Positions 5,434 to 27,730 of a stretch of 64,000 nucleotides of DNA are shown in pieces (position 1 is the first letter of the stretch; every line of letters begins with the position of its first letter). Position numbers and translations under genes: made by a program. The notes under the pieces are model-generated. The model was not told the origin of the DNA, did no database searches, and saw nothing but the letters and a program-made list of their open reading frames with translations. Source of the DNA: Acidobacteriota bacterium (lineage in GTDB: Bacteria; Acidobacteriota; Vicinamibacteria; Fen-336); contig QHVJ01000150.1 in the NCBI GenBank assembly GCA_003222275.1, forward strand, positions 10,518-74,517, in the 5' to 3' direction.

Positions 5434-7002
5434 ATGAGGATCGCCGCCATCGACATCGGCAGCAACTCCTTTCACATGGTCATCGTAGAGAGCCGCTCCG
5501 GCGGGTTCCACGTGATCGACCGCGAGAAGGAGATGGTCCGCCTCGGCGAGCGCACGCTTTCGCGGGGCCGGCTGTCCGCGGCCTCCATGCGGCGGGGACT
5601 CGACGCGCTGCGCGAGTACAAGCGGCTGGCGGACATGCACGGCGTCGACAAGCTCCTGGTCGTGGCCACCTCCGCCGTGCGCGAGGCCGCCAACGGCGAG
5701 GATTTTCTCGAGCGTGTGGGCGGGGAGATCGGCTTCTATCCGCAGGTCGTCTCGGGCGAGGAAGAGGCCCGGCTGATCTATCTGGCCGCGCTCCACAGCG
5801 TCAACCTCGAGGGGCGGCGTACCCTGGTGGTGGACATCGGCGGGGGCAGCGTGGAGCTGGCCATGGGGGTGGGCCCCCAGGTGGAGTGGGCCGTCTCCGA
5901 GAAGCTCGGCGTGCTGCGAATGACCGAGCGCTTCGTCCACAGCGACCCCCTGGCCGCCCGCGACGAGCGGCGCCTGGTCGGCTACGTGAGGCAGTTCATG
6001 GTGCCGCACGCCGCCCGGGCGCGGGACGACGGCTTCGACCTCGTGGTCGGGACCTCGGGGACAGCCTTGGCCCTGGGGGCCATGGCCACTGCAGCGGGAA
6101 TACTACCCGAATCGCTCCACCACCTGACGGTGCCGGCGGCCGCTCTTCACGCCCTGCGCCGGCGCCTCGTCGGGACCACGCTCAAGGGGCGCCGGCGGCT
6201 GCCCCTCATGGACGAGCGGCGCACCGACATCATCGTGGCCGGCGCCGTCGTGCTGGACGAGATACTCGACGCTCTCGAGGCGAAGGAGATCGTCCTCTGC
6301 GAGTGGGCGCTGCGCGAGGGGTTGCTGCTCGACTACTTGACGGGCCACAAGCGCGCGGTCGCGCGCGCCGAGGCGTACCCCGACGTTCGCCGCCGCAGCG
6401 TCGTGGCCCTGGCCGAGCGCTGCCATTTCCACGAGGCGCACGCGCGGCAGGTGGCCGCCCTCGCCCTGGGCCTGTTCGACGCGACGGCGTCGCGGCACGG
6501 TCTGCAGGCACCGGAGCGCTCGCTGCTCGAGTACGCCGCGCTCCTTCACGACGTCGGCCGGCACATCTCCTATCCCGACCGGCACCGGCACACCGAGTAC
6601 CTCGTCCGCAACGGCGGGCTGCGCGGCTTCGATCCCCGCGAAGTCGAGATGATGGCGCTCGTGGGGCGCTATCACCGGCGCGGCGTCCCGCGGAAGAAGA
6701 ACCTGGCCTTCGCCGCGCTGGCCCGTCCCGACCGCGAAGCCGTGCGCATGATGGCGGGGCTCCTGCGGCTGGCCGACGCGCTCGATCGCAGCCATCGCGG
6801 CGTCGTCAAGGCGGTGGCCGTCTCCGAGACGTCACGGGGCCTGCGCTTGCGCTGCGAGGCGGAGGGCGACGCCGGCCTGGAGCAGTGGGCGTCGGGACGG
6901 CGGGTCGATCTGCTGGAGCGCGCGCTCGACCGGGCGATCCAGGTCGAATTCGCGCCCGTGCCCGCGGCCACCGCGGTGCGCGCGCGAGCGGCGGGCGCCT
7001 GA
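5434..7002 (+). CDS. ppx: Exopolyphosphatase / guanosine pentaphosphate phosphohydrolase (Ppx/GppA) with C-terminal HD domain
   Basis: Ppx/GppA N-terminus IAAIDIGSNSFHMVIVE...VATSAVREAANGEDF. HD region LLHDVGRHISYPDRHRHTEYL. Confidence 0.85.
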   Translation: MRIAAIDIGSNSFHMVIVESRSGGFHVIDREKEMVRLGERTLSRGRLSAASMRRGLDALREYKRLADMHGVDKLLVVATSAVREAANGEDFLERVGGEIGFYPQVVSGEEEARLIYLAALHSVNLEGRRTLVVDIGGGSVELAMGVGPQVEWAVSEKLGVLRMTERFVHSDPLAARDERRLVGYVRQFMVPHAARARDDGFDLVVGTSGTALALGAMATAAGILPESLHHLTVPAAALHALRRRLVGTTLKGRRRLPLMDERRTDIIVAGAVVLDEILDALEAKEIVLCEWALREGLLLDYLTGHKRAVARAEAYPDVRRRSVVALAERCHFHEAHARQVAALALGLFDATASRHGLQAPERSLLEYAALLHDVGRHISYPDRHRHTEYLVRNGGLRGFDPREVEMMALVGRYHRRGVPRKKNLAFAALARPDREAVRMMAGLLRLADALDRSHRGVVKAVAVSETSRGLRLRCEAEGDAGLEQWASGRRVDLLERALDRAIQVEFAPVPAATAVRARAAGA

Positions 7003-8612
7003 TGCCCAGCCCCCGCCGGCGCAGCCTGACCCCCAAGACCGCCCCCCCCGTGCCGGTCCCGGCGGAGGCCCCGCGGCCGGTGGCCGTGATCGACATGGGC
7101 GCCAGCGCCATCCGGCTCCTCGTCGCGGAGGCGGCTCCCGGCCAGCCCGTACGCATTCTCGAGGAGGCCTCCCGCGGCGTCCTGCTCGGCAAGGACACCT
7201 TCACGCACGGACGGCTCGGCGCGGCCACGGTGGAAGCCACGCTCAAGGCCCTCGAGGGCTTCCGCCGGATCATGGACGGCTACGGCGTCGTGCGCTACCG
7301 GGCGGTGGCGACGAGCGCGGTGCGGGAGGCCCAGAACTCCGACGCGTTCCTGGACCGGGTGCGCCTTCGCACCGGCATCGACGTCGAGGTGATCGACGGC
7401 TCGGAGGAGAACCGCCTCACGTACATGGCGGTGCGCGAGACGCTGCGCGACCACCCCGCCCTCACCAGCGGCGACACCCTCCTCCTCGAGGTCGGCGGGG
7501 GGAGCGCCGACATCTCCTTCCTGCGGAAGGGGCAGCCGATCAACTCCGGGACGTATCCCCTCGGCTCGATCCGCATGCGGCAGAGCCTCGCCTCCTGGCA
7601 CGGCAGCCAGGAGCAGGGGATGCGCCTCCTGCGCCGGCACATCCACAACGTGGTCGACGACATCCGCCGCGAGATCCCGCTGCGCGAGGCGCAGCACGTC
7701 ATCGCCCTCGGCGGCGACGTCCGCTTCGCCGCGCAGCAGATGGTGGGGGATCGGGCGGACGGCGCCCCCGCCATCCTCGGGCGCGAGCCCTTCGTGGCCT
7801 TCTGCGACCAGGTCACCTCCTGGGACGTCGAGCAGCTCGTGGAGCAGTATCACCTGCCGCAGGCGGAGGCGGAGACGCTCGTGCCCGCGCTCGTCGCCTA
7901 CCGCGAGCTGCTGCAGGAGACGGCGGCGCAGGAGGTGATCGTCCCCGACGTGTCCCTTCGGGCCGGCCTCCTCCTCGACGTGGCGCAGGTGGACGCCGGC
8001 CAGGGGATCGAAGACTTCAGCCGGCAGGTGCTCTCGAGCGCGGTCGCGCTCGCCGAGAAGTACCGCTGGGACGCGCCGCACTCGAAGAAGGTCGCGCAGC
8101 TCGCGACCCGGATCTTCGACGAGCTGAAGGCGGAGCACGGCCTCGGCGATCGCGAGCGGCTGCTCCTGGAGGTGGCCGCGCTCCTGCACGACATCGGCAA
8201 CTACGTCAACCTCCGCGGCCACCACAAGCACACCTGGTACCTGCTCTCGGTGTCGGACATCTTCGGCCTTTCGGGTGACGACATGGCGCTGGTCGCGAAC
8301 GTGGCCCGCTATCACCGCCGCGCCCTGCCCCAGAAGTCGCACCTGCCCTACATGGCCCTCGACCGCGAGGCCCGCGTGGTGGTCAACAAGCTGTCGGCCA
8401 TCCTCCGCCTCGCCAACGCGCTCGACGCCGACCATCTCCAGAAGGTGAAGGACGTGCGGGTGCTGTCGGAAGAGGGGGACTGGGTCCTGGACGTGGATGG
8501 GGCGGGCGACCTCACCATGGAGCGGCTGGCTTCCCTCGCGCGCGGCGATTTCCTGACCGAGGTGTTCGGCCGGAAGCTCACCTTCCGGGAATCGAGGGCC
8601 CGCGCATCGTGA
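7002..8612 (+). CDS. ppx: Second Ppx/GppA-family exopolyphosphatase with HD domain (paralog)
   Basis: Start MPSPRRR at an ATGA overlap with the upstream ppx stop. VAVIDMGASAIRLLVAE...VATSAVREAQNSDAF and HD region LLHDIGNYVNLRGHHKHTWYL. The 5316..8612 ORF upstream of 7002 is antisense/frame noise over the first ppx. Confidence 0.8.
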   Translation: MPSPRRRSLTPKTAPPVPVPAEAPRPVAVIDMGASAIRLLVAEAAPGQPVRILEEASRGVLLGKDTFTHGRLGAATVEATLKALEGFRRIMDGYGVVRYRAVATSAVREAQNSDAFLDRVRLRTGIDVEVIDGSEENRLTYMAVRETLRDHPALTSGDTLLLEVGGGSADISFLRKGQPINSGTYPLGSIRMRQSLASWHGSQEQGMRLLRRHIHNVVDDIRREIPLREAQHVIALGGDVRFAAQQMVGDRADGAPAILGREPFVAFCDQVTSWDVEQLVEQYHLPQAEAETLVPALVAYRELLQETAAQEVIVPDVSLRAGLLLDVAQVDAGQGIEDFSRQVLSSAVALAEKYRWDAPHSKKVAQLATRIFDELKAEHGLGDRERLLLEVAALLHDIGNYVNLRGHHKHTWYLLSVSDIFGLSGDDMALVANVARYHRRALPQKSHLPYMALDREARVVVNKLSAILRLANALDADHLQKVKDVRVLSEEGDWVLDVDGAGDLTMERLASLARGDFLTEVFGRKLTFRESRARAS

Positions 8613-10765
8613 TGAAGGCCCCCGGACGGCCGCGCAAGAAGGAGCCCGAGCTCTTCATCAACCGGGAGCTGTCCTGGCTGGAGTTCAACGGCCGCGTGCT
8701 CGAAGAAGCGATGGACCCCGCCACCCCGCTGCTGGACCGGCTGAAGTTCGCCATCATCGTCTCGACGAACCTCGACGAGTTCTTCATGGTCCGGGTGGCG
8801 GCTCTGAAGCACGCATTCGCGGAGGGCGACAACGAGCCCGACCTCGCCGGGCTGCGCCCGCGCCAGCAGCTGCACGTGATCGCCGAGCGCGCTCATGAGA
8901 TGGTGGACACCCTGGGCCGGACCCTGACCGAGCAGATCCTGCCCGCGCTCGCCGAGCACGCCGTGCGCATCGTCCCCCTGGCCACGCTGGAGGAGGCGCA
9001 GCGCACGTTCCTCGCCCGTTACTTCCGCGGGGAGGTGCTTCCCGCCCTCACGCCGCTGGCCACCGACGCCTCGCGGCCCTTTCCCCGGCTGGCCAACCTC
9101 AGCCTGAACCTCGCGATCCTCCTCGCGCCCGGCGAGGGCGAGGAGCAGCCGCGGCTGGCCCTCGTCCAGGTTCCGGGCGGGCTGCGGCGGCTGGTGCGGC
9201 CGGTCGGAGGTGAGGGCAGCACCTACGTGCTCCTCGAAGAGGTCATCCGTGCCGAGCTGGCCGAGCTGTTCCCCGGCCAGCGGGTGCTGGCCTCGGCCGC
9301 CTTCCGCATCGCCCGCGACGCGGAGATAGAGCTGGACGACGAGGGCGGCCGGCCCTACCTGGAAACGGTGGAGGAGGAGCTGAAGAAGCGTCGCAGCAGT
9401 CAGATCGTCCGCCTGGAGGTCGAGTCGGAGGCGGACGACGCGCTGCTCGCCCTGCTGCTGGAGCGCCTGGGGGTAGAGATCCCTGACGTCTACCACGTCC
9501 GCGGCCCGCTGGACATGCGGGCGCTGCAGCCGCTCGTCGACATTCCCTCCCTGGAGCACCTGCGGGAGCCGGCCCTGAAGCCCCTCCCGGTGCTCGACGA
9601 GCACGAGCTGCGCAACATCTTCTCGGTCGTGGCCGAGCGCGACGTGCTCCTCTACCACCCCTTCGACTCGTACGAGCCGGTCCTCGCCTTCCTGTCGACC
9701 GCCGCCTCCGATCCCGACGTGCTGGCCATCAAGCAGACCCTCTACCGCACGAGCGGCGATTCCCCGGTGGTGCAGGCGCTGGCCCGGGCGGCGGAGAACG
9801 GCAAGCAGGTCACGGTGGTGGTGGAGCTGATGGCCCGCTTCGACGAGCAGTCGAACATCCGGTGGGCGAAGAGCCTCGAGGAATCGGGCGCCCACGTGAT
9901 CTACGGCATCCAGGGGTTCAAGACGCACGCCAAGGTCTGCCTCGTCGTCCGTCGCGGCCGGCAGGGTATCGAGCGCTACGTCCACATGGGCACCGGCAAC
10001 TACAACGACCGCACCGCGCGCGTCTACGCCGACTTCGGCTCCCTGACCGCGGACCGGGTCGTGGGCGAGGACGTGTCGGCCTTCTTCAACGCGCTCACCG
10101 GCTACTCCGACCCGCCGAAGATGAAAAAGCTGGCCATGGCTCCGACCAACCTCCGCGAGCGCTTCCTTCGCCTCATCGAGCGCGAGCGGCGCCGGGCGGA
10201 GGAGGGGCAGGCGGCGGAGATCCGGGCCAAGATGAACTCCCTCGTCGACGAGGAGATCATCCGCGCCCTCTACGATGCGTCCGGGGCCGGCGTGCGGATC
10301 CGGCTCAACGTGCGCGGCATCTGCTGCCTGCGTCCGGGCATCAAGGGCGTCAGCGAGACGATCGAGGTGATCTCCATCGTGGACCGCTTCCTCGAGCACG
10401 CGCGCGTCTACCAATTCCGCAACGGCGGCGACGAGGAGGTGTACCTCTCCAGCGCCGACTGGATGCCCCGGAACCTGGACCGCCGGATCGAGCTGCTCTT
10501 CCCGGTGACCGCGCCCGAGCCGCGCCGAAAGGTCCTCGAGGTGATGGACGCCATGTTCCTCGACAACGTGAAGGCTCGGCGACTCATGCCGGACGGGACC
10601 TACAAGCGCAAGCGACCGCCCAAGGGCGAGGAACCCTATCGCGCCCAGATCCAGCTCTACCGCGAGTGGAAGAGGACCCTGGAGCGCACTCGGGCCGCGA
10701 CGAGCGTTGCGTTCGAGCCGGCCCCCGCCCCCGGACCCGTCGAGAAGGTATCGTCGACCGGATGA
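8609..10765 (+). CDS. ppk: Polyphosphate kinase 1
   Basis: 718 aa; PPK1 N-terminus FINRELSWLEFNGRVLEEA and PLD-like C-terminal domains (HAKVCLVVRR). ATGA overlap with the upstream ppx. Confidence 0.9.
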   Translation: MMKAPGRPRKKEPELFINRELSWLEFNGRVLEEAMDPATPLLDRLKFAIIVSTNLDEFFMVRVAALKHAFAEGDNEPDLAGLRPRQQLHVIAERAHEMVDTLGRTLTEQILPALAEHAVRIVPLATLEEAQRTFLARYFRGEVLPALTPLATDASRPFPRLANLSLNLAILLAPGEGEEQPRLALVQVPGGLRRLVRPVGGEGSTYVLLEEVIRAELAELFPGQRVLASAAFRIARDAEIELDDEGGRPYLETVEEELKKRRSSQIVRLEVESEADDALLALLLERLGVEIPDVYHVRGPLDMRALQPLVDIPSLEHLREPALKPLPVLDEHELRNIFSVVAERDVLLYHPFDSYEPVLAFLSTAASDPDVLAIKQTLYRTSGDSPVVQALARAAENGKQVTVVVELMARFDEQSNIRWAKSLEESGAHVIYGIQGFKTHAKVCLVVRRGRQGIERYVHMGTGNYNDRTARVYADFGSLTADRVVGEDVSAFFNALTGYSDPPKMKKLAMAPTNLRERFLRLIERERRRAEEGQAAEIRAKMNSLVDEEIIRALYDASGAGVRIRLNVRGICCLRPGIKGVSETIEVISIVDRFLEHARVYQFRNGGDEEVYLSSADWMPRNLDRRIELLFPVTAPEPRRKVLEVMDAMFLDNVKARRLMPDGTYKRKRPPKGEEPYRAQIQLYREWKRTLERTRAATSVAFEPAPAPGPVEKVSSTG

Positions 10766-19100: not shown

Positions 19101-21230
19101 CTACTTGCCCCTCTTGCTCTCGGCCGGCACGGGAAATCCTCGCTTGCGCATCAGGGCGGCGATGCCGGGGTCGCGGCCGCGGAACGCGCGGTACGCTTCG
19201 GCGGGGTCCACGGTATTGCCGGCGGAGAACACGTTGTCGTGGAGCCGCTTGGCCACTGCCTTGTCGTAGGGACCGCCGGCCTCGGTGAACGCCTCCCAGG
19301 CGTCGGCAGACAGCGTGTCCGACCACAGGTAGCTGTAGTAGCCGGCCGAGTAGCCGTCGCCCGAGAACACGTGGCCGAACTGGGGCGTGCGGTGGCGCAT
19401 CACGATCTCGGACGGCATGCCGAGCGCCTTCAGCGTGTCGCGCTCGAACGCGTCGGGATCGATCGTCTGTTCCCCCGCCAGGTGCAGCTTCATGTCGACG
19501 AGCGCGCTCGCCAGGTACTCGACGGTCGCGAAGCCCTGGTTGAAGGTGGAGGCCTTCTCGATCTTGTCCACCAGCGCGGGCGGGATCGGCTGGCCGGTCT
19601 GGTAGTGGAGCGCGAAGCGGTTCAACACCTCGGGCGTCGACAGCCAGTGCTCGAGCAGCTGCGACGGGAACTCCACGTAGTCGCGGGCCACGCTCGTGCC
19701 CGACAGCGACGGGTAGCGGACCTTCGAGTTCAGGCCGTGGAGCGCGTGGCCGAACTCGTGGAAGAGCGCGATGGCGTCGTCCCACGAGATGAGGATCGGC
19801 TCGCCGGGCGGGCCCTTCACGAAGTTTGTGTTGTTGGAGACGATGGTGGTGATCGGGCGCTCGAAGCTCTCCTGGTTGCGGTAGGCGTTCATCCAGGCCC
19901 CGGAGTTCTTGCCTGTCCGCGCGTAGGGGTCGAAATACCAGAGCCCCACCAGCGTGCCGGACGGGTCGGTGACCTTGAACACGCGCATGTCCGGGTTGTA
20001 GACGGGGATGCCGTCGACCGGGGTGAAGGTGAAGCCGAACAGCTGCCCGGCCACCCAGAACATCCCCTCGCGCAGCTTCTCGAGCTGGAGGTAGGGCTTC
20101 ACCTCGTTCTGGTCGAGGTCGTACTTTGCCTTGCGCACCTTCTCGGCGTAATAGCGGTAATCCCAGGGCTCGATCTTGATCTTCGCGCCCTCCTTGTCCG
20201 CGACCGCCTGCATGTCGGCGACTTCCTCGCGGACGCGGGCCACCGCCGGCTTCCACACCGCCTCCATCAGCTCCAGGGCCCGCTCCGGGGTGCCGGCCAT
20301 CGTGTTCTCCAGCCGCCAGTGGGCGTGGGTCCGGTAGCCGAGCAGCTTCGCCCGCTCGGCGCGCAGCTTCAGGATCTCCGTGATGATCGCGTTGTTGTCG
20401 TGGGCGTCGCCGTGGTCGCCGCGGCTGTAGAAGGTGCGCCAGACCTTCTCGCGCAGGTCGCGGCGGTCGGAGTAGGTGAGGAACGGCTCCATGCTCGACC
20501 GCGTGTTGAGCACGGCCCACTTGCGCTTCTGGCCCCGCTGCTCGGCGGCGGCGGCCGCGGCGGAGCGCAGCGAGTCGGGCAGGCCGGCGAGGTCGGACTC
20601 CTGGTCGAGGAAGAGGACGTAGTCCGCCTCGTCGGCGAGCAGGTTCTGGCTGAACCTCGTGTAGAGCGCGGCCAGCCGCTGGTTGATCTCCGAGAGCCGC
20701 TTCTTGGCCGCGGGGTCGAGCCGGGCGCCCGCGCGGACGAAGTTGGTGTAGTCGAGCCACGCCAGGCGCTTCTGCTCCGAGGTGAGCTTCGCGGCGTCCC
20801 GCGCCCCGTACACCGCGGCGATGCGCGCGAAGAGCTTCTCGTTCTGCGTGATCTGGTCGGAGAACGCGGCCAGCTTCGGGGCCATCTCCTCCTCGACCTT
20901 CTGGAAGTCCGGCGTGCTCATGGTCCCGCTGTAGACGCCGAAGATCGTTCCCACGCGGTCGAGGGTGCGGCCCGAGCGTTCGAGCGCGGCCAGCGTGTTC
21001 TCGAAAGTCGGCGGTGCGGGGTCGTTCGCGATCTTGTCGACCTCGGCCAGCTGCTCCGCCATCGCCGCCGCGAGGGCGGGCTGGAAGTGCTCGACTTTCA
21101 CCTTGTCGAAGGGCGGAACGCCCCCGTAGGGTCCGGTCCACGGCGCCAGCAGCGGGTTCTGCACGGTGGCCTCCGCGGCCAGGGATGCTATCGCGACCGC
21201 ACCGGCGGTCGCGATGAGGACTCTGATCAT
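19101..21230 (-). CDS. dcp: Peptidyl-dipeptidase Dcp (M3 family zinc metallopeptidase), secreted
   Basis: Start MIRVLIATAGAVAIASLAA (signal peptide) with RBS GGAGAGG. HEFGHALHG zinc motif; M3A family length. The ORF track's longer N-terminus (to 21542) is unsupported. Confidence 0.85.
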   Translation of the reverse strand: MIRVLIATAGAVAIASLAAEATVQNPLLAPWTGPYGGVPPFDKVKVEHFQPALAAAMAEQLAEVDKIANDPAPPTFENTLAALERSGRTLDRVGTIFGVYSGTMSTPDFQKVEEEMAPKLAAFSDQITQNEKLFARIAAVYGARDAAKLTSEQKRLAWLDYTNFVRAGARLDPAAKKRLSEINQRLAALYTRFSQNLLADEADYVLFLDQESDLAGLPDSLRSAAAAAAEQRGQKRKWAVLNTRSSMEPFLTYSDRRDLREKVWRTFYSRGDHGDAHDNNAIITEILKLRAERAKLLGYRTHAHWRLENTMAGTPERALELMEAVWKPAVARVREEVADMQAVADKEGAKIKIEPWDYRYYAEKVRKAKYDLDQNEVKPYLQLEKLREGMFWVAGQLFGFTFTPVDGIPVYNPDMRVFKVTDPSGTLVGLWYFDPYARTGKNSGAWMNAYRNQESFERPITTIVSNNTNFVKGPPGEPILISWDDAIALFHEFGHALHGLNSKVRYPSLSGTSVARDYVEFPSQLLEHWLSTPEVLNRFALHYQTGQPIPPALVDKIEKASTFNQGFATVEYLASALVDMKLHLAGEQTIDPDAFERDTLKALGMPSEIVMRHRTPQFGHVFSGDGYSAGYYSYLWSDTLSADAWEAFTEAGGPYDKAVAKRLHDNVFSAGNTVDPAEAYRAFRGRDPGIAALMRKRGFPVPAESKRGK

Positions 21231-21312
21231 GTATGCCTCTCCATTATTGCCGCCCATCCAACCCCCCATTTTAGCGCGAGCCGTTGTTAAAGTTGGTGAA
21301 GGGGGAGGAACG

Positions 21313-21804
21313 ATGGCCGAGCAGGCGGAGGGCGACGCGGTCCGCGCGGGCCTGAGCGAGGCGGAGATGCGCGAGCGGGTGATCCGGCTCGCCTTCGGCG
21401 GAGATCCCCGCCGGCTGGACCAGTTCTGCGCGGCGGTCCGCGAGGCCCTCCCCCCGGACACGGCCGCCGTCCTGCGCGGGAGCGCCGTCACCGGGTACCG
21501 CCACGACGACCACGCGCCGTTCGACGCCGACGGCGCCGGCACGAGCGACCTCGACCTGACCCTGGTGGGCGACGAAGTCGTCGGGCTCTACAGCGCGTTC
21601 TGGATCCCCGGGATCAACAGCCGCCCGCTCAGCGACGAGGACCCCGACATCTGTCCCGCGCTGGTGCCGCTGCGGCGCCGCCTGATGCAGATGGTCGGGC
21701 GCCCGGTGAACATCCAGGGCACGCGCGACTGGATCATGTTCGTGCGCGAGCACCTGATGGGCCAGCCGTACCTCATGCTCGTGGGCAAGCTCGAGAGCCC
21801 GTGA
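21313..21804 (+). CDS. Minimal nucleotidyltransferase (Pol-beta superfamily)-like hypothetical protein
   Basis: Start MAEQAEG with RBS GGGGGAGGA. Pol-beta NTase signature RGSAVTG-x13-GTSDLDLTLV (GS...DhDh). Confidence 0.45.
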   Translation: MAEQAEGDAVRAGLSEAEMRERVIRLAFGGDPRRLDQFCAAVREALPPDTAAVLRGSAVTGYRHDDHAPFDADGAGTSDLDLTLVGDEVVGLYSAFWIPGINSRPLSDEDPDICPALVPLRRRLMQMVGRPVNIQGTRDWIMFVREHLMGQPYLMLVGKLESP

Positions 21805-21805
21805 G

Positions 21806-22552
21806 GTGCGGCTGCTCACCTACAACATCCGCTTCGGGGGAGCAGGGCGCGTGGGGGCGCTGGCGGCCGTCGTCAACCACTGCGCCCCCGACGTGGTGGT
21901 GCTGCAGGAGGCGACCCTTCCGCCCGTCGTCGAGCAGCTGGCCGCGGCGACCGGCATGACCGCCTGGGGCGCGCGGCCGCGGCAATCCCTCGCCTTCATG
22001 AGCCGCGTGCCCATCGCGCACCACGAGTGGCACCGCCCGCGGGCGAGCCGCCGTGCTTTCCTCGAGATCGTGCCCGCCGCCGGCTCCCTGCGGATCTTCG
22101 GCGTCCATCTGAGCGCCGTCCATTCCAACTGGACGGAGCGGCGGCGGGTGAGGGAGCTGCGCGCGATCCGGCAGGGCGTCGCTCGCTACCAGGGCGATTT
22201 CCACGTCGTCGCCGGCGACTTCAACACCCTCGCCCCCGGGGAGGAGCTGGACCTGCGCAAGCTGCCCCCGCGGCTACGGGCGATCGTCTGGCTCACGGGC
22301 CGACGGATCCGGTGGGAGACGATCCAGATCATGCTCGACGCCTCGTACGTCGACGGCTACCGTTCCCTGCACGGCCACGACCCCGGGTACACGTTCCCCA
22401 CCTGGGACCCCCACGTGCGCCTCGACTACGTGTTCGTCCCTTTCGCCTGGTCCCGGCGTCTCGCCGACTGCGCGGTCGTGAGCGACCATCCCGCGCTCGC
22501 CCAGGCCTCCGACCACCTCCCCCTGCGGGCGGAGGTGGAGCTCGAGCCTTGA
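21806..22552 (+). CDS. Endonuclease/exonuclease/phosphatase (EEP) family protein
   Basis: EEP motifs LLTYNIRFG, VVVLQEA, GDFN, SDHLPL. GTG start 2 nt after the upstream NTase stop. Confidence 0.75.
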   Translation: MRLLTYNIRFGGAGRVGALAAVVNHCAPDVVVLQEATLPPVVEQLAAATGMTAWGARPRQSLAFMSRVPIAHHEWHRPRASRRAFLEIVPAAGSLRIFGVHLSAVHSNWTERRRVRELRAIRQGVARYQGDFHVVAGDFNTLAPGEELDLRKLPPRLRAIVWLTGRRIRWETIQIMLDASYVDGYRSLHGHDPGYTFPTWDPHVRLDYVFVPFAWSRRLADCAVVSDHPALAQASDHLPLRAEVELEP

Positions 22553-22584
22553 CACCGTCCGGTTTTAGACTTAGTCTAAACAGC
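22549..22584 (+). promoter_or_regulatory. Putative sigma70-like promoter (TTGACA-17-TAGTCT) with embedded 8-1-8 palindrome TTTAGACTtAGTCTAAA (22564..22580) immediately upstream of the perR-like ATG
   Basis: Perfect inverted repeat in an AT-rich island of a 70% GC genome. The -10 lies about 7 nt before the ATG at 22585, implying a leaderless mRNA. Confidence 0.45.
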
Positions 22585-22998
22585 ATGACGCGGGACGTGC
22601 CGGGCATCCTCCGGCAGCACGGCATCCAGCCCTCGGCGCAGCGGGTGGCGGTGGCGGCCTTCGTGCTCGAGACCGAAGCCCACCCCTCGGCCGACCAGGT
22701 CTTCGCCGCCGTTCGCAAGAGGCTGCCCGTGCTGTCCCGGGCCACCGTCTACAACACGCTGCACCTGATGGTGAAGAAGGGCCTGCTGCGCGAGCTGGTG
22801 CTGGCGCCGGGCCGGGTGGTGTTCGACCCCAAGACGGGCCCCCACCACCACTTCATCGAGGAGAGGACGGGCCGCATCCACGACATCCCCTGGGAGGCGG
22901 TGGACGTGTCGCGGGTGGGCTCGCTGAAGGGGTTCGAGGTGCACGAGTACCAGGTCGTGATGAAGGGCCGCGCGGCGGGCGCTCGCCCGCGCCGGTGA
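22585..22998 (+). CDS. Fur-family transcriptional regulator, PerR-like (peroxide-responsive)
   Basis: Fur family DNA-binding and metal-binding regions (HHHF, C-terminal dimerisation domain); directly upstream of ahpC-ahpD. Confidence 0.8.
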   Translation: MTRDVPGILRQHGIQPSAQRVAVAAFVLETEAHPSADQVFAAVRKRLPVLSRATVYNTLHLMVKKGLLRELVLAPGRVVFDPKTGPHHHFIEERTGRIHDIPWEAVDVSRVGSLKGFEVHEYQVVMKGRAAGARPRR

Positions 22999-23602: not shown

Positions 23603-24150
23603 TGGGAACGGAGCTGGAGGCGGTCCGGGACATGCTGCCGGAGGCGGCCAAGGACATCCGCCTGAACCTGCAGTCGGTGCTGCAGGGCGGGCCGCTCACC
23701 CCGGCCCAGCGGTGGGGGACGGCCGTCGCGGCCGCCCTCGCCGCCCGCAACCCCCGACTGCGCGATGCGCTCGTGGCGGAGGCGCGGCGGGAGGTGGAAG
23801 AGGCCGTGATCGAGGACGCGCGGGCGGCGGCGGCGATCATGGCGATGAACAACGTCTACTACCGGTTCCGGCACATCGTGGGCAAGGCGTCCTACGGCGA
23901 GAAGCCGGCGCGCCTGCGCATGAACCGCCTCGTGCAGCCGGCGGGCAGCAAGGTGGACTTCGAGCTCTACGCGCTGGCGGTGAGCGCCCTCAACGGGTGC
24001 GAGACCTGCGTGCAGGCCCACGAGCGCACGGTGCTCGAGGGCGGGCTGACCGAGGACCACGTGCACGACGCCGTCCGCATCGCGGCCACGGTCAAGGCCG
24101 CGGCCGTCGCGCTGGAAATGGTGGAGGCGCCGGCGGCGATGACGGCCTAA
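23602..24150 (+). CDS. ahpD: Alkylhydroperoxidase AhpD (carboxymuconolactone decarboxylase family)
   Basis: ATGA overlap with ahpC. AhpD core LNGCETCVQAH (CxxC-H). Confidence 0.8.
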   Translation: MGTELEAVRDMLPEAAKDIRLNLQSVLQGGPLTPAQRWGTAVAAALAARNPRLRDALVAEARREVEEAVIEDARAAAAIMAMNNVYYRFRHIVGKASYGEKPARLRMNRLVQPAGSKVDFELYALAVSALNGCETCVQAHERTVLEGGLTEDHVHDAVRIAATVKAAAVALEMVEAPAAMTA

Positions 24151-25145
24151 GAGCCCGTGACGGCGCGAATCGCCAGGTAGCTGATCGCCGCCACCAGGGC
24201 GGCGAGGGGGATGGTGAGGATCCACGCCCACACGATGGTTCCCGCCACCCCCCATTTCACCGCGGAGATCCGCCGCGTGGCTCCCACCCCGATGATCGCG
24301 CCCGTGATCGTGTGCGTGGTGGACACCGGGATGCCGAGATGCGTGGCCAGGAACAGCGTGATCGCGCCGGAGGTCTCGGCGCAGAAGCCGCCGAAGGGCT
24401 GAAGCTTCGTGATCTTGGTGCCCATCGTCTTGACGATGCGCCAGCCGCCGAACATCGTGCCGAGCGCGATGGCGGCGTGGCAGGTGATGATGACCCAGAA
24501 GGGGATCTCGAAGCCCTGGTGGTAGCCGGCGGTGACGAGCAGGCCGGTGATGATGCCCATCGTCTTCTGGGCGTCGTTGCCGCCGTGGCCGAGGCTGTAG
24601 AGCGCGGCGGAGACGAGCTGCATCCGCCGGAAGAGCTGGTCGAGCCGAAAGGGGTGCCAACGCCGGAAGATCCACGTCACGGACACCATGAGGACGAAAC
24701 CCAGGAACGCGCCCATGACCGGCGCGAGCACGATGAAGATCAGGGTCTTCGTCCATCCCGAGAGAAGGATTGCGCTCGTCCCCGCCCGCGCCACGGCGGC
24801 GCCGGCGTAGCCGCCGATGAGCGCGTGCGACGAGGAGACTGGCAGCCCGTAGTACCACGTGAACAGGTTCCACGTGATGGCGCCGATGAGGCCGGCGAGG
24901 ATCACGTGCTGGTTCACGACCGTGATGTCGATCATCCCCTTGCCCATCGTCTTGGCCACGGCGGTGCCCATGACGAAGGCGGCCACGAAGTTGAAGAAGG
25001 CGGCCCACAACACCGCCTTCTGCGGAGAGAGCACGCGCGTGGAGACGACGGTGGCGATCGAGTTGGCGGCGTCGTGGAAGCCGTTCAGGAAGTCGAAGGT
25101 GAGCGCGACCAGGATGATGAAGACGACGCCGAGGTCGAAGGTCAA
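24147..25145 (-). CDS. pit: Inorganic phosphate transporter, PiT family
   Basis: PiT signature LTFDFLNGFHDAANSIATVV and internal repeat GGNDAQKTMGII. TTG start inferred at 25145, just after the upstream DUF47 stop; the ORF track's longer N-terminus would overlap DUF47. Confidence 0.8.
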   Translation of the reverse strand: MTFDLGVVFIILVALTFDFLNGFHDAANSIATVVSTRVLSPQKAVLWAAFFNFVAAFVMGTAVAKTMGKGMIDITVVNQHVILAGLIGAITWNLFTWYYGLPVSSSHALIGGYAGAAVARAGTSAILLSGWTKTLIFIVLAPVMGAFLGFVLMVSVTWIFRRWHPFRLDQLFRRMQLVSAALYSLGHGGNDAQKTMGIITGLLVTAGYHQGFEIPFWVIITCHAAIALGTMFGGWRIVKTMGTKITKLQPFGGFCAETSGAITLFLATHLGIPVSTTHTITGAIIGVGATRRISAVKWGVAGTIVWAWILTIPLAALVAAISYLAIRAVTGS

Positions 25146-25153
25146 GGCCTGGC

Positions 25154-25807
25154 TCAGGCGTTCTTCACGAGCACGTTGCCGAGGGCGTGGGTGAAGTCCT
25201 TGCACTCGTCGCAGGCGTCTTCCAGGCCCTGGTAGATCTCCTTCCACTTCATGATCTCGAGCGGCTTCTTGCCCTCGCCGCCGCGGAAGAGCTCGGCGAT
25301 CACGCTGAAGTAGACGGTGTCGGCCTCGTTCTCGAGCTGGGAGATCCGGACGATCGACTCCCGGATGACCTTGTCGTTCCCGAGGTCCCAGATGAGGGAG
25401 GTCGCCTTGTGGATCTCCTCGACCATCGACACGATGATCTCGGCGAACTTCCGCAGCGGCGGCGGGCTCTCGCCGATCTCGAACAGGATCAAGAACTGGG
25501 CCACCCCCTCCAGGTAGTCGAGGATGTCGTCGAGGTCGCTGGCGATGACGCGGATGTCCTCCCGGTCGAGCGGCGTGATGAACGTCGAGTTGAGGGCGTC
25601 GAAGATCTCCTTCGTGATCTGGTCGCCCTCGTGCTCCAGCGCCTTCAGCTCCGCCACCTTCGTCCGGCGCACGTCCAGGCTCTGGCTGGCCGCGATCTCG
25701 CCGAAGAGGCGCGCGGCCCGCAGGAGGTGCTGGGTGTCGCGGTCCAGCAGCTCGTGAAACCGCTCCTCCTTCGGCATGAAGAACTTGACGATCTTGTCGC
25801 CTCGCAT
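25154..25807 (-). CDS. DUF47 (PhoU-like, TIGR00153) Pit accessory protein
   Basis: DUF47 family organisation, upstream of and co-directional with pit. Confidence 0.8.
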   Translation of the reverse strand: MRGDKIVKFFMPKEERFHELLDRDTQHLLRAARLFGEIAASQSLDVRRTKVAELKALEHEGDQITKEIFDALNSTFITPLDREDIRVIASDLDDILDYLEGVAQFLILFEIGESPPPLRKFAEIIVSMVEEIHKATSLIWDLGNDKVIRESIVRISQLENEADTVYFSVIAELFRGGEGKKPLEIMKWKEIYQGLEDACDECKDFTHALGNVLVKNA

Positions 25808-25988: not shown

Positions 25989-26024
25989 TTGACAAAACCT
26001 ATAGTTCTAGTATATTGGAACTAT
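25989..26024 (+). promoter_or_regulatory. arsR promoter/operator: TTGACA-16-TATATT with inverted repeat ATAGTTC-N10-GAACTAT overlapping the -10 and the arsR ATG
   Basis: Near-consensus sigma70 hexamers in an AT-rich island. The -10 is about 7 nt before the ATG at 26023 (leaderless); the dyad typical of ArsR/SmtB operators overlaps -10/+1. Confidence 0.5.
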
Positions 26025-26352
26025 GGATGAGAAACGGGCAGTGGCCGCCCTCGGGGCGCTGGCCCAGGAATCGCGCCTGAAAGTGTTCCGCCTCCTCGTG
26101 CGCCGAGGGCCGTCGGGCCTGGCCGCGGGCGAGATCAGCCAGCGTGTGGGCGTGCCGCCTACGACGCTTTCCTTCCATCTGGCGCAGCTGAACCGCGCCG
26201 GGCTCGTGACCTCGCGGCGAGAGGGCCGCTCCATCCTCTACGCGGCGGACTACGACGGCATGCAAACCCTGATGGGCTTCCTGGTCGACCACTGCTGCCA
26301 GGATGGAACCGGTTGCGCGCCGCCCGAAGCGGCGCCAAGGAGACGAAGATGA
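26023..26352 (+). CDS. arsR: ArsR/SmtB family metalloregulator
   Basis: HTH ArsR family (ESRLKVFRLL...GEISQRVGVPPTTLSFHLAQL). C-terminal Cys cluster CCQDGTGC. Confidence 0.85.
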   Translation: MDEKRAVAALGALAQESRLKVFRLLVRRGPSGLAAGEISQRVGVPPTTLSFHLAQLNRAGLVTSRREGRSILYAADYDGMQTLMGFLVDHCCQDGTGCAPPEAAPRRRR

Positions 26353-27167
26353 CCGAAGAGCTGGTACGGAAGGTCCGGGAGCGCTATGCCCAGATTGCCG
26401 AAGGACAGGTCAGCGGGTGCTGCGGCCCGCAGACTTCGGGGTGCGGGTCCGAGTCCGCGGTGACCCTCGGCGTCGGGTACGACGCGAGCGAGCTGGCTCT
26501 AGTGCCCGCCGAGGCGAATCTGGGCCTGGGCTGCGGCGCCCCCATCGGCTTCCTGTCGCTGAAAGCCGGCGAGACCGCTCTCGACCTCGGCTCGGGGCCG
26601 GGCCTGGACACGTTCCTCGCCGCCCGTCAGGTCGGGCCGGAGGGCCGCGTGATCGGGGTCGACATGACGCCGGCGATGCTGGAGCGCGCCCGCGCGAACG
26701 CCGCCAAGATCGGCGTCTCGCACGTGGAGTTCCGGGAGGGCCGGCTGGAGGCGCTGCCCGTCGAGAGCTCCTCGATCGACGCCGTGACCAGCAACTGCGT
26801 GATCAACCTGGTGCCGGACAAGCGGGCGGTTTTCGCGGAGATCGCGAGGGTGCTGCGGCCCGGCGGGCGCGTGGTGATCTCGGACATCCTGCTCGACGGA
26901 CGGCTTCCGGCGGTGGTCGAGCAGGACCTGCTCGCCTACGTGGGCTGCGTCTCGGGGGCGATGAGACGCGAGGAGTATTTCGCCCTCGTGGGCGCGGCCG
27001 GACTCGAGAAGGTGGAGGTCCTTCGGGACGTGGACTACCTGGCCACGCTCATCGAATCCGCCCCCGATGAGGTGGGCGCGCTCGAGGCGCGAACGGGCGT
27101 CACCCGAGAACAGGTTCTCGGTCGCGTGCACTCCGTGACCTTCCGCGCCGAGAAGCCGGCGCGCTGA
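26349..27167 (+). CDS. arsM: Arsenite S-adenosylmethionine methyltransferase ArsM
   Basis: ATGA overlap with arsR. N-terminal Cys pairs (GCCGP...GCGSE); SAM-MTase motif LDLGSGPGLD; ArsM C-terminal region. Confidence 0.8.
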   Translation: MTEELVRKVRERYAQIAEGQVSGCCGPQTSGCGSESAVTLGVGYDASELALVPAEANLGLGCGAPIGFLSLKAGETALDLGSGPGLDTFLAARQVGPEGRVIGVDMTPAMLERARANAAKIGVSHVEFREGRLEALPVESSSIDAVTSNCVINLVPDKRAVFAEIARVLRPGGRVVISDILLDGRLPAVVEQDLLAYVGCVSGAMRREEYFALVGAAGLEKVEVLRDVDYLATLIESAPDEVGALEARTGVTREQVLGRVHSVTFRAEKPAR

Positions 27168-27319
27168 AGGAGATCGTCGCCCCGCCCGCGGGGACCGGGC
27201 CGTCACCACGTCGCCTCTCGACGGTCACGCTCCGGTCGGGCCGGCCACCGATGCTCTGGCCCATGAGCTTCGCCGGCGTCCTCGATTCAGACGAGAATGC
27301 GGTTCAGGGAGCCGCCACC

Positions 27320-27730
27320 GTGGACAGGGTGATCTTCGCCTGCGTACGCAGCGCCGGCCGGTCGCAGATGGCGGCCGCGTTCTTCAACCGGCTCGCCGAT
27401 CCTGAGAAGGCGCGCGCCGTGTCGGCCGGCACCGAGCCCGCGGAGCGCGTCCATCCCGAGGTCGTCGAAGCGATGCGCGAGGCCGGCTACGACCTGTCCG
27501 GTGCCCGGCCCTCGCTCCTGCAGAAAGAGCTGGCCACCCCCGCGAGCCTGCTCGTCACGATGGGCTGCGGCGAGGCCTGCCCCTACGTACCGGGGCTCCG
27601 CCGGGAGGATTGGGCTCTCGATGATCCCAAGGGGCGGGACAAGGACGAGGTGCGCCGGATCCGAGACCAGGTCCGCGGCCGCGTCGAGAGGCTGGTCGCC
27701 GCGAACCGCTGGGCAGGTCCGTCGTCCTGA
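27320..27730 (+). CDS. arsC: Arsenate reductase ArsC (LMW-PTP / thioredoxin-coupled type)
   Basis: GTG start after RBS AGGGAG. P-loop CVRSAGRS (CX5R) and downstream Cys residues. The ORF track's longer N-terminus (27251) lacks an RBS. Confidence 0.7.
   Translation: MDRVIFACVRSAGRSQMAAAFFNRLADPEKARAVSAGTEPAERVHPEVVEAMREAGYDLSGARPSLLQKELATPASLLVTMGCGEACPYVPGLRREDWALDDPKGRDKDEVRRIRDQVRGRVERLVAANRWAGPSS

Follow-up and report, generated by a model that had tools for sequence, protein, structure and literature searches.

We have analysed a stretch of 64,000 nucleotides from an Acidobacteriota bacterium (class Vicinamibacteria; assembly GCA_003222275.1, contig QHVJ01000150.1, positions 10,518 to 74,517), which we will call the window. 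Its G+C content is about 70%. The subject of this work is a pair of adjacent genes, ORF A and ORF B, which are presented in Table 1 with their main features. ORF A codes for a small acidic protein, probably a nucleotidyltransferase; ORF B codes for a basic protein with the endonuclease/exonuclease/phosphatase (EEP) fold. The two genes are very close: the GTG of ORF B is found one base beyond the stop codon of ORF A, a spacing which is compatible with co-translation, and there is neither a sigma-70-like promoter nor a terminator between them. Their limits agree with those given in an earlier reading of the same DNA, made from the letters alone, which we will call the original prediction. We place the start of ORF A in position 21313 and not at the upstream GTG in position 21166, because of the location of the Shine-Dalgarno-like sequence GGGGGAGGA; the homologues of this protein also have 161-166 amino acids. 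This sequence lies in an 80-bp divergent intergenic region, common to ORF A and to the gene of an M3 peptidase on the minus strand.

Table 1. Features of the gene pair in the window and order of genes in the related Rhs loci
Feature	Position	Strand	Comment
ORF A, acidic protein of 163 aa, pI 4.8	21313..21804	+	ATG 21313, TGA 21802-21804
Shine-Dalgarno-like GGGGGAGGA	21301..21309	+	Read from the sequence, just 5' of the ORF A ATG
G56-S57 codons of ORF A, hG[GS] motif	21478..21483	+	Turn from strand 1 to helix; invariant in A1, A2 and A6
D79-L80-D81 codons of ORF A, [DE]h[DE] metal-binding motif	21547..21555	+	D79 and D81 invariant in A1, A2 and A6
D108 codon of ORF A, candidate third catalytic carboxylate	21634..21636	+	D or E in 17/17 A2 and 23/23 A6
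ORF B, basic protein of 248 aa, pI 9.9, EEP fold	21806..22552	+	GTG start
Very basic insertion of ORF B, residues 142-170, pI 11.3	22229..22315	+	Subfamily-specific, strongly conserved
Acidic ORF of ~110 aa, locus L083	3000-3332		After the Rhs-A tip; then EEP
Acidic ORF of ~110 aa, locus L090	646-975		After the Rhs-A tip; then EEP
Acidic ORF of ~110 aa, locus L091	879-1208		After the Rhs-A tip; then EEP
Acidic ORF of ~110 aa (110-aa homologue), locus L170	966-1307		After the Rhs-A tip; followed by another Rhs fragment, EEP absent
EEP, locus L086			Alone after the Rhs-A tip, 24 nt 3'

The predicted model of ORF A has the core alpha-beta-alpha-beta-alpha-beta fold of the DNA polymerase beta (Pol-beta) superfamily. 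Since its motifs are located where this fold requires them, the protein is probably an active, although very divergent, minimal nucleotidyltransferase of the Pol-beta type. We have followed the conservation of these motifs in three alignments, with 35 close homologues (A1), 17 distant ones (A2) and 23 fused ones (A6). The residues R55-G56-S57 are invariant in all of them and are found between a strand (51-55) and a helix (57-60) of the model, while S78-D79-L80-D81-L82 opens the strand 80-85. The correct motif is GS-x21-DLDL, with D79-L-D81-L, which is invariant in the 35 close and the 17 distant homologues. The original prediction had recognized the fold and the type of motif, as confirmed by the model, by Foldseek and by the conserved GS and DxD; the motif it gave, GS-x13-DhDh (D71-A-D73-G), is eight residues off: D71 is invariant, D73 is not. 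A candidate for the third catalytic carboxylate is D108, a position which has D or E in all 40 aligned sequences of A2 and A6.

The assignment of the fold is supported by these motifs and by modest structural scores. In Foldseek the top match of the model is MntA (7aer_A, E=0.033, prob 0.95), which is of weak significance, and there are 0 matches at E<=0.001. The nearest structures are MNT antitoxins (1no5, 8xeh, 5yep, 7ae2, 7aer); CCA-adding enzymes, TUT4, AadA, DrrA and Tam41 are found at lower ranks. By sequence, ORF A has no match among the Pfam, NCBIfam and PADLOC models, including PF01909 (NTP_transf_2). The comparison of 17 diverse members of the family with nucleotidyltransferase families gave only noise at E<=10, and profile searches of the PDB, either with the close or with the diverse alignment, gave only chance matches. 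An hhalign comparison of the family profile with an approximate sequence of kanamycin nucleotidyltransferase gave no signal and is uninformative. The family is a large one: more than 7,800 homologues at E<=0.001 in a protein collection clustered at 90%, which form 395 clusters at 50% identity. The 120 homologues listed are all hypothetical or unnamed, without any Pfam domain.

The nature of ORF B is clearer in its sequence. It scores above the gathering score of Pfam PF03372 and has the four-layer alpha/beta sandwich of the EEP superfamily; no HEPN model matches it. The partner of A is an EEP enzyme and not a HEPN protein, as had been predicted. Judging from these features it is a Mg-dependent EEP-fold phosphodiesterase or nuclease. 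Its catalytic set (N7, E35, H101, D138, N140, D207, D236, H237) is invariant in 24 close homologues. By sequence profile, its nearest solved relatives are found among the ExoIII-like AP endonucleases (Neisseria NExo, 5e-8) and the LINE-1 endonucleases. We considered whether ORF B could be an orthologue of Xth and rejected it: its scores, 27.8 bits for TIGR00195 (cut-off 182.55) and 26.7 bits for TIGR00633 (cut-off 99.05), are far under the cut-offs of these NCBIfam equivalogs. Because of these scores, the label 'exodeoxyribonuclease III', which is given to homologues of ORF B (JGI), is an over-annotation. Unlike the ExoIII/Xth AP endonucleases, ORF B carries the subfamily-specific basic insertion of Table 1. 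It has a number of invariant residues (A143, P144, G145, L148, D149, L153, P154, R156, L157, G165, R169), and it is poorly modelled, with pLDDT <50 over residues 142-148, 152-154 and 163-169. It is a candidate surface for the binding of a substrate or a partner.

An EEP gene is found directly 3' of A in 162 of the 164 informative loci which we have studied. The loci L001-L082 come from the genome scan described below, together with two metagenome loci: 81 of the 82 have the EEP directly 3' of A, with gaps of 3-112 nt. The loci L083-L169 include a more distant clade and two other types of A proteins (Rhs and CbiX, see below): the EEP is directly 3' in 81 of these 87, which become 81 of 82 when only contigs with enough room are counted, as 5 contigs end too early. 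The exception in the first group is L050 (Pyrinomonadaceae), the only non-contiguous genome locus, where a 932-aa gene (5480-9018) is found between A and EEP. Looking at its sequence by eye, with no family search, we judge that this gene codes for an FtsX/MacB-like (ADOP-type) permease. The other exception is L162, which has an EEP fragment (859-1119) on the opposite strand, 3' of A and at the end of the contig; this probably comes from an error of assembly or from a local inversion. The pairing of A and EEP is real, goes far beyond chance and is close to obligate. The operon, which had been proposed from a single locus, is found across hundreds of genomes; the two points on which the original prediction had made itself depend, a nucleotidyltransferase fold in the first protein and co-occurrence of the genes in other genomes, have both turned out as it expected. 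Two proteins appeared to be fusions of A with EEP, P0290 (449 aa) and P0269 (249 aa). We have rejected them: they are frameshift or assembly chimeras, with low-complexity nonsense past the junction.

The genome scan was carried out with the close alignment A1 on one genome per GTDB species and gave relatives of A in 269 species. Taxonomy and copy number refer to the best 80 of them. They belong to Vicinamibacteria, to Blastocatellia/Pyrinomonadaceae and to Bryobacteraceae/Solibacteraceae (Bryobacterales), with two bins of 'Candidatus Eisenbacteria'. The closest homologues are found in metagenome bins of Vicinamibacteria (Acidobacteriota). A is strongly conserved, 58-83% identical across classes. 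The two proteins have diverged together: the pairwise distances of A and EEP have a correlation r=0.64, which is reached by 0 of 999 Mantel permutations, and the concatenated pairs cluster largely by taxonomy at the class level. A single copy of the pair is found in the window, and also in each genome of the 80 loci kept. A tblastn search with A gave no match in annotated plasmid and phage collections, which hold few Acidobacteriota. All this describes a self-contained module of two genes with a long history in Acidobacteriota, unlike a typical defence gene, which hops between genomes. The pairs of the two 'Candidatus Eisenbacteria' bins (L009 and L031) are placed inside the Vicinamibacteria clade of the window, with 63-68% identity; this is due either to horizontal transfer or to mis-binning.

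The pair does not have constant neighbours. In the first set of loci the commonest flanking family is limited to 25 of 82; in the second, the commonest one reaches 9 of about 24 metagenome loci. The neighbour search did not bring out any third component or pathway context. These results bear on the nucleotide signal suggested in the original prediction, in which A would make a second messenger, for example 2'-5' oligoadenylate, and a PDE12-like EEP would degrade it. No effector or sensor gene is conserved beside the pair, and the defence-system models of PADLOC-DB v2 have no match with either A or EEP at E<=1. CD-NTases and OAS have a second lobe, which is absent from the 163 amino acids of A; the EEP is nearest in structure to the ExoIII type and not to PDE12; and a constitutive pair of a synthase and a degrader without a receiver has no obvious function. 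A signalling role is therefore very improbable.

Relatives of A are also found in a quite different setting. In five clusters (P0333, P0335, P0351, P0372, P0302) the A-domain is the C-terminal end of an Rhs protein. P0333, which has the NCBI name 'RHS repeat-associated core domain-containing protein [Anaerolineae bacterium]', matches TIGR03696 (Rhs_assc_core) with 72.7 bits (cut-off 32.5). The match ends in residue 136, with a DPSGH motif. Past the Rhs core there are a Gly/TM-rich linker of about 100 residues, then the motif 'WGHPNAR' and finally the A-domain, in which GS and DxD are intact. P0335 has a partial match to TIGR03696, and in P0302 the motif at the end of the core was recognized by eye. 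One of these loci, L083, shows the classic arrangement of Rhs orphan cassettes in an array. ORF A itself is different: it stands alone, without an Rhs core, and only its relatives are found C-terminal to one.

The genes which follow the Rhs-A tip are given in Table 1. Most of the loci listed there have an ORF of about 110 aa, which is acidic (pI 4.8) and appears only directly after A-domains of the Rhs type. This ORF and its homologue in L170 represent two subclades, with 45% identity (E=2e-31). It has no match in Pfam or NCBIfam. It is a candidate for a new family of immunity proteins. As neither A nor the ~110-aa protein has any Pfam-A match, they match none of the toxin and immunity families held in Pfam. 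In short, the immunity position, directly 3' of A, is occupied by the EEP in the window and by the ~110-aa ORF, the EEP or both in the Rhs relatives.

A third architecture is found in about two dozen of the 150 listed clusters at 50% identity. These proteins have about 290-320 aa, with the A-domain placed after a weakly CbiX-like domain (P0274, P0276, P0292, P0303, P0324 and about 20 more clusters; L084 5001-5921 is an example). The N-terminal domain is poorly conserved: its similarity to CbiX (class II chelatase) is weak, with a best E=9e-6, and none of its His residues is invariant. It is possibly a sensor, and it gives no clue to function. P0303 is found on two contigs (L084, L085), with the same EEP subfamily 3' of it. 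The EEPs of the stand-alone, CbiX-fused and Rhs-type systems form in fact a single subfamily: they are colinear, have 35-56% identity and share the same insertion. The catalytic residues of ORF B are also kept in the EEPs of all three architectures, including the Rhs cassettes. Because every one of them is kept in all contexts, it is the catalytic activity of the EEP, beyond mere binding, which is under selection.

These architectures leave little room for the idea that A is a nucleotidyltransferase of small molecules, for example one which modifies antibiotics (Lnu, ANT-like), with the EEP as an unrelated or accessory protein. Matches with such enzymes do appear among the structures; they are weaker than the MNT matches, and no resistance-gene model was matched. 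This explanation accounts neither for the obligate EEP partner nor for the placement of A in Rhs tips together with an immunity-like protein, and we find it hardly credible.

The explanation which we prefer is that A and EEP form an antagonistic module of two enzymes, in which A is a potentially toxic "writer" of nucleotides and the EEP is its "eraser" antidote. It is a tentative choice, slightly easier to doubt than to accept. It is based on the predicted folds, the intact catalytic motifs of both proteins, their obligate adjacency, their co-divergence and the placement of A in Rhs tips with an immunity-like gene or an EEP on its 3' side. From these observations we infer the toxicity of A, the reversal of its product by the EEP and the nature of the substrate. 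The intact active sites, together with the obligate co-encoding, the co-divergence and the use in Rhs tips, suggest that the activity of A is harmful and that the EEP counters it. This counteraction should be catalytic, since an EEP which merely binds A would need no invariant catalytic residues. As the EEP is ExoIII-like and very basic, the likeliest substrate would be the 3' end of a nucleic acid.

The module might work as follows. A would attach a nucleotide (NMP) to a cellular target and be harmful when unopposed. The target would most likely be a nucleic-acid 3' end, in tRNA or another RNA for example; alternatively it could be a protein side chain, with a Tyr-NMP adduct which the EEP would remove in a TDP2-like manner. 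The EEP, which is presumably co-translated with A, catalytically intact and ExoIII-like, would hydrolyse the phosphodiester and remove the nucleotide added by A; it would probably also bind A, and would thus be an enzymatic antidote. In Acidobacteriota the pair would be kept as a single-copy chromosomal module, either a toxin with its antidote or a reversible regulatory switch. In other bacteria the Rhs polymorphic toxins would have taken up the A-domain as their warhead. The toxin-antitoxin idea of the original prediction survives in part: it is favoured by the relatives of A in Rhs tips with an immunity-like gene and/or an EEP 3', while the absence of plasmid and phage homologues in the collections searched, the single copy and the clustering mostly by class do not agree with it.

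The charge of the two proteins is of interest in this respect. In the stand-alone pairs A is acidic (pI 4.8 in the window, median 4.84 in 80 loci) and the EEP is basic (9.9, median 9.5). In the Rhs cassettes we find basic values (pI 8.9-9.5) in 3 of the 4 A-domains computed, next to neutral or acidic ones (6.4-7.2) in their EEPs. The complementarity of charge in both settings suggests that A and EEP bind each other. The flip in polarity is what would be expected if A is a delivered toxin and the EEP a resident protector, a hint which comes from a small sample.

The same charges can be read in the opposite way. According to the strongest rival explanation, the pair would follow the plan of HepT/MntA, a type VII toxin-antitoxin system: the basic EEP nuclease would be the toxin, and the acidic A an antitoxin which binds the EEP and inactivates it by nucleotidylylation. 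In the MNT-HEPN dyads the gene of the nucleotidyltransferase is also found 5', and it is the antitoxin (PMC3710099). The nearest structures of A are the MNT antitoxins mentioned above, A is acidic and its partner basic, and the EEP is ExoIII/DNase-like and catalytically intact. However, in the Rhs cassettes it is A, and not the EEP, which forms the secreted toxin tip, with the EEP in the immunity position, and the A-domain has a small immunity-like protein of its own, which can take the place of the EEP, as in L170. Furthermore no HEPN, MNT or toxin-antitoxin model was matched, and the pair is present in a single copy and groups mostly by class. We consider this explanation unlikely.

The differences with HepT/MntA go further. 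Both systems have a minimal Pol-beta nucleotidyltransferase (about 100-160 aa) which is 5' of a nucleic-acid hydrolase and tightly coupled to it. However the partner of A is an EEP metal-dependent phosphodiesterase (PF03372) and not a HEPN RNase with Rx4-6H. A itself matches no MNT, NTP_transf_2 or PADLOC model, and it has additional elements at both the N- and the C-terminus and a 21-residue spacer from GS to DxD.

The distribution of the pair brings in another explanation, which we also regard as unlikely, although not remote: A and EEP would cooperate in housekeeping. The EEP would trim blocked or damaged 3' ends in the manner of ExoIII and APE, and these would be refilled by A without a template; or else the two would form a GlnD-like switch of nucleotidylylation and de-nucleotidylylation. 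The Rhs versions would then be a secondary weaponisation. Such a role agrees with a single-copy gene pair which clusters mostly by class across Vicinamibacteria, Blastocatellia and Bryobacterales, with the strong conservation of A, with the housekeeping and stress genes which surround it in the window and with the lack of mobile-element matches. The nearest relatives of the EEP are ExoIII and AP endonucleases, and the complementary charges are compatible with a heterodimer. On the other hand no gene of repair or RNA processing is found among the conserved neighbours, the position of the module shifts between lineages, and a housekeeping role leaves unexplained an A-domain which serves as Rhs warhead and has an immunity-like protein of its own.

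Several observations weigh against a writer toxin with an eraser antidote. The gene order, with the nucleotidyltransferase 5' and its partner 3', is that of the dyads in which the nucleotidyltransferase is the antitoxin (PMC3710099). Stand-alone A is acidic, which is unusual for an enzyme acting on nucleic acids; an antitoxin has this character more often. The pair is atypical for a toxin-antitoxin module in its single copy, its clustering mostly by class and its lack of plasmid or phage matches. For the Rhs setting there are only five protein clusters, on short contigs of at most 4.8 kb, and it could be the Gly/TM-rich linker of these proteins which is toxic. Finally, the third carboxylate of A is a candidate taken from the alignments.

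In spite of these points, the antagonism of writer and eraser has parallels in known systems. MenT-type nucleotidyltransferase toxins add tails to tRNA 3' ends. In MenT/AbiEii a protein with the nucleotidyltransferase fold is also the toxin of a two-gene module, a plausible model for an A warhead. However, these toxins belong to another family (DUF1814/AbiEii, about 300 aa), without detected sequence similarity to A, and their antitoxins are not known to be EEP hydrolases. In DarT/DarG, Tre1/Tri1 and toxSAS/SAH a transferase toxin is opposed by a hydrolase which takes away the modification or breaks down the product. This is also the logic proposed for A and EEP, and in Tre1/Tri1 it is found within a pair of secreted toxin and immunity protein. 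The chemistry is different, ADP-ribosylation or pyrophosphorylation instead of the presumed nucleotidylylation by A, and so are the folds of the erasers: macrodomain, ARH and HD instead of EEP.

The combination of folds itself is known in eukaryotes, where EEP 3' exonucleases act against Pol-beta nucleotidyltransferases: CCR4/Nocturnin against poly(A) polymerase, PDE12 against OAS. In a similar way TUTase is opposed by the exoUases REX1/2, which are EEP 3' exonucleases (PMC1525001). Unlike A and EEP, the eukaryotic antagonists are not encoded in operons and are much larger multidomain enzymes, and ORF B is nearer to the ExoIII type by sequence. With the Rhs polymorphic toxins the relatives of A share the Rhs core (TIGR03696, DPxGH) followed by a variable C-terminal domain, the arrays of orphan cassettes and the immunity-like gene directly 3'. 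The window ORF A differs from them as a stand-alone cytoplasmic protein without Rhs core, linker or secretion signal.

Two components of this proposal are already known in kind: the opposition of transferase toxin and hydrolase antidote, and the two-gene module which contains a nucleotidyltransferase. In the literature searched we did not find any description of a nucleotidyltransferase-EEP pair, of an A-type toxin domain or of an EEP-fold antitoxin or immunity protein. The HEPN survey (PMC3710099) describes neither the pair nor an A-type toxin domain nor an EEP antidote, and A is not described in those parts of a survey of polymorphic toxins (PMC3482391) which a term search for nucleotidyltransferase toxin domains brings up.

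The surroundings of the pair in the window are housekeeping and stress genes. On the 5' side of ORF A the M3 peptidase on the minus strand is dipeptidyl-carboxypeptidase-like (Dcp); on the 3' side ORF B is followed by a Fur/PerR/Irr-like regulator (22594-22998), by AhpC and AhpD and, further on, by genes of phosphate and arsenic. It is not a defence island. Dcp, Fur, AhpC and AhpD are unlinked to the pair elsewhere, apart from an upstream Dcp in the two closest relatives.

Some other features of these regions should be mentioned. Between the stop of the EEP gene (22552) and the start of the Fur-like gene (22594) there is an AT-rich patch with a perfect 8+1+8 palindrome, TTTAGACT-T-AGTCTAAA, in positions 22564-22580. 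It is probably an operator, as far as its sequence and position can tell, for autoregulation of the regulator and control of the peroxide-stress operon. The arsenic and phosphate cluster is found near the pair, in positions 25999-27730 and 24147-25807 of the window. Named from the translations of their ORFs alone, its genes are an ArsR-like regulator, a SAM methyltransferase (ArsM-like), a low-molecular-weight phosphatase/ArsC-like protein, PitA, a PhoU-like DUF47 protein, a porin and PstS. In another clade, which has a 159-aa A protein (P0391; L087-L089), a gene for an Eco57I-type (type IIG) restriction-modification methyltransferase is placed divergently 5' of the pair. It is the sole defence-like neighbour which we have seen.

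If we return to A as writer and the EEP as eraser, the proposal can be stated in a more complete form, which is possible and more doubtful than its general outline. A would be the founder of an unannotated family of nucleotidyltransferase toxins, and the EEP an eraser antidote which hydrolyses its nucleotidyl adduct; this would most likely be a 3' tail added without a template to tRNA or other RNA. The warhead would be exchangeable among the chromosomal pair, the fusion with a CbiX-like sensor and the contact-dependent Rhs toxins, which would have their own small immunity family.

Even under the rival explanations, the strict pairing of a nucleotidyltransferase fold with an EEP fold is a new association. 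If the writer and eraser are what we propose, bacterial conflict systems would gain a new family of toxin domains and a new family of small immunity proteins, and the EEP would be the first enzymatic antidote with this fold, as far as the literature searched can tell. The pair would also be a compact bacterial counterpart, made of two small soluble proteins, of the control of RNA 3' ends by nucleotidyltransferases and EEP enzymes in eukaryotes. It would give a function to two genes which are now labelled as 'hypothetical protein' and, wrongly, as 'exodeoxyribonuclease III', and which are found in hundreds of species of Acidobacteriota, bacteria which are abundant in soil and poorly studied.

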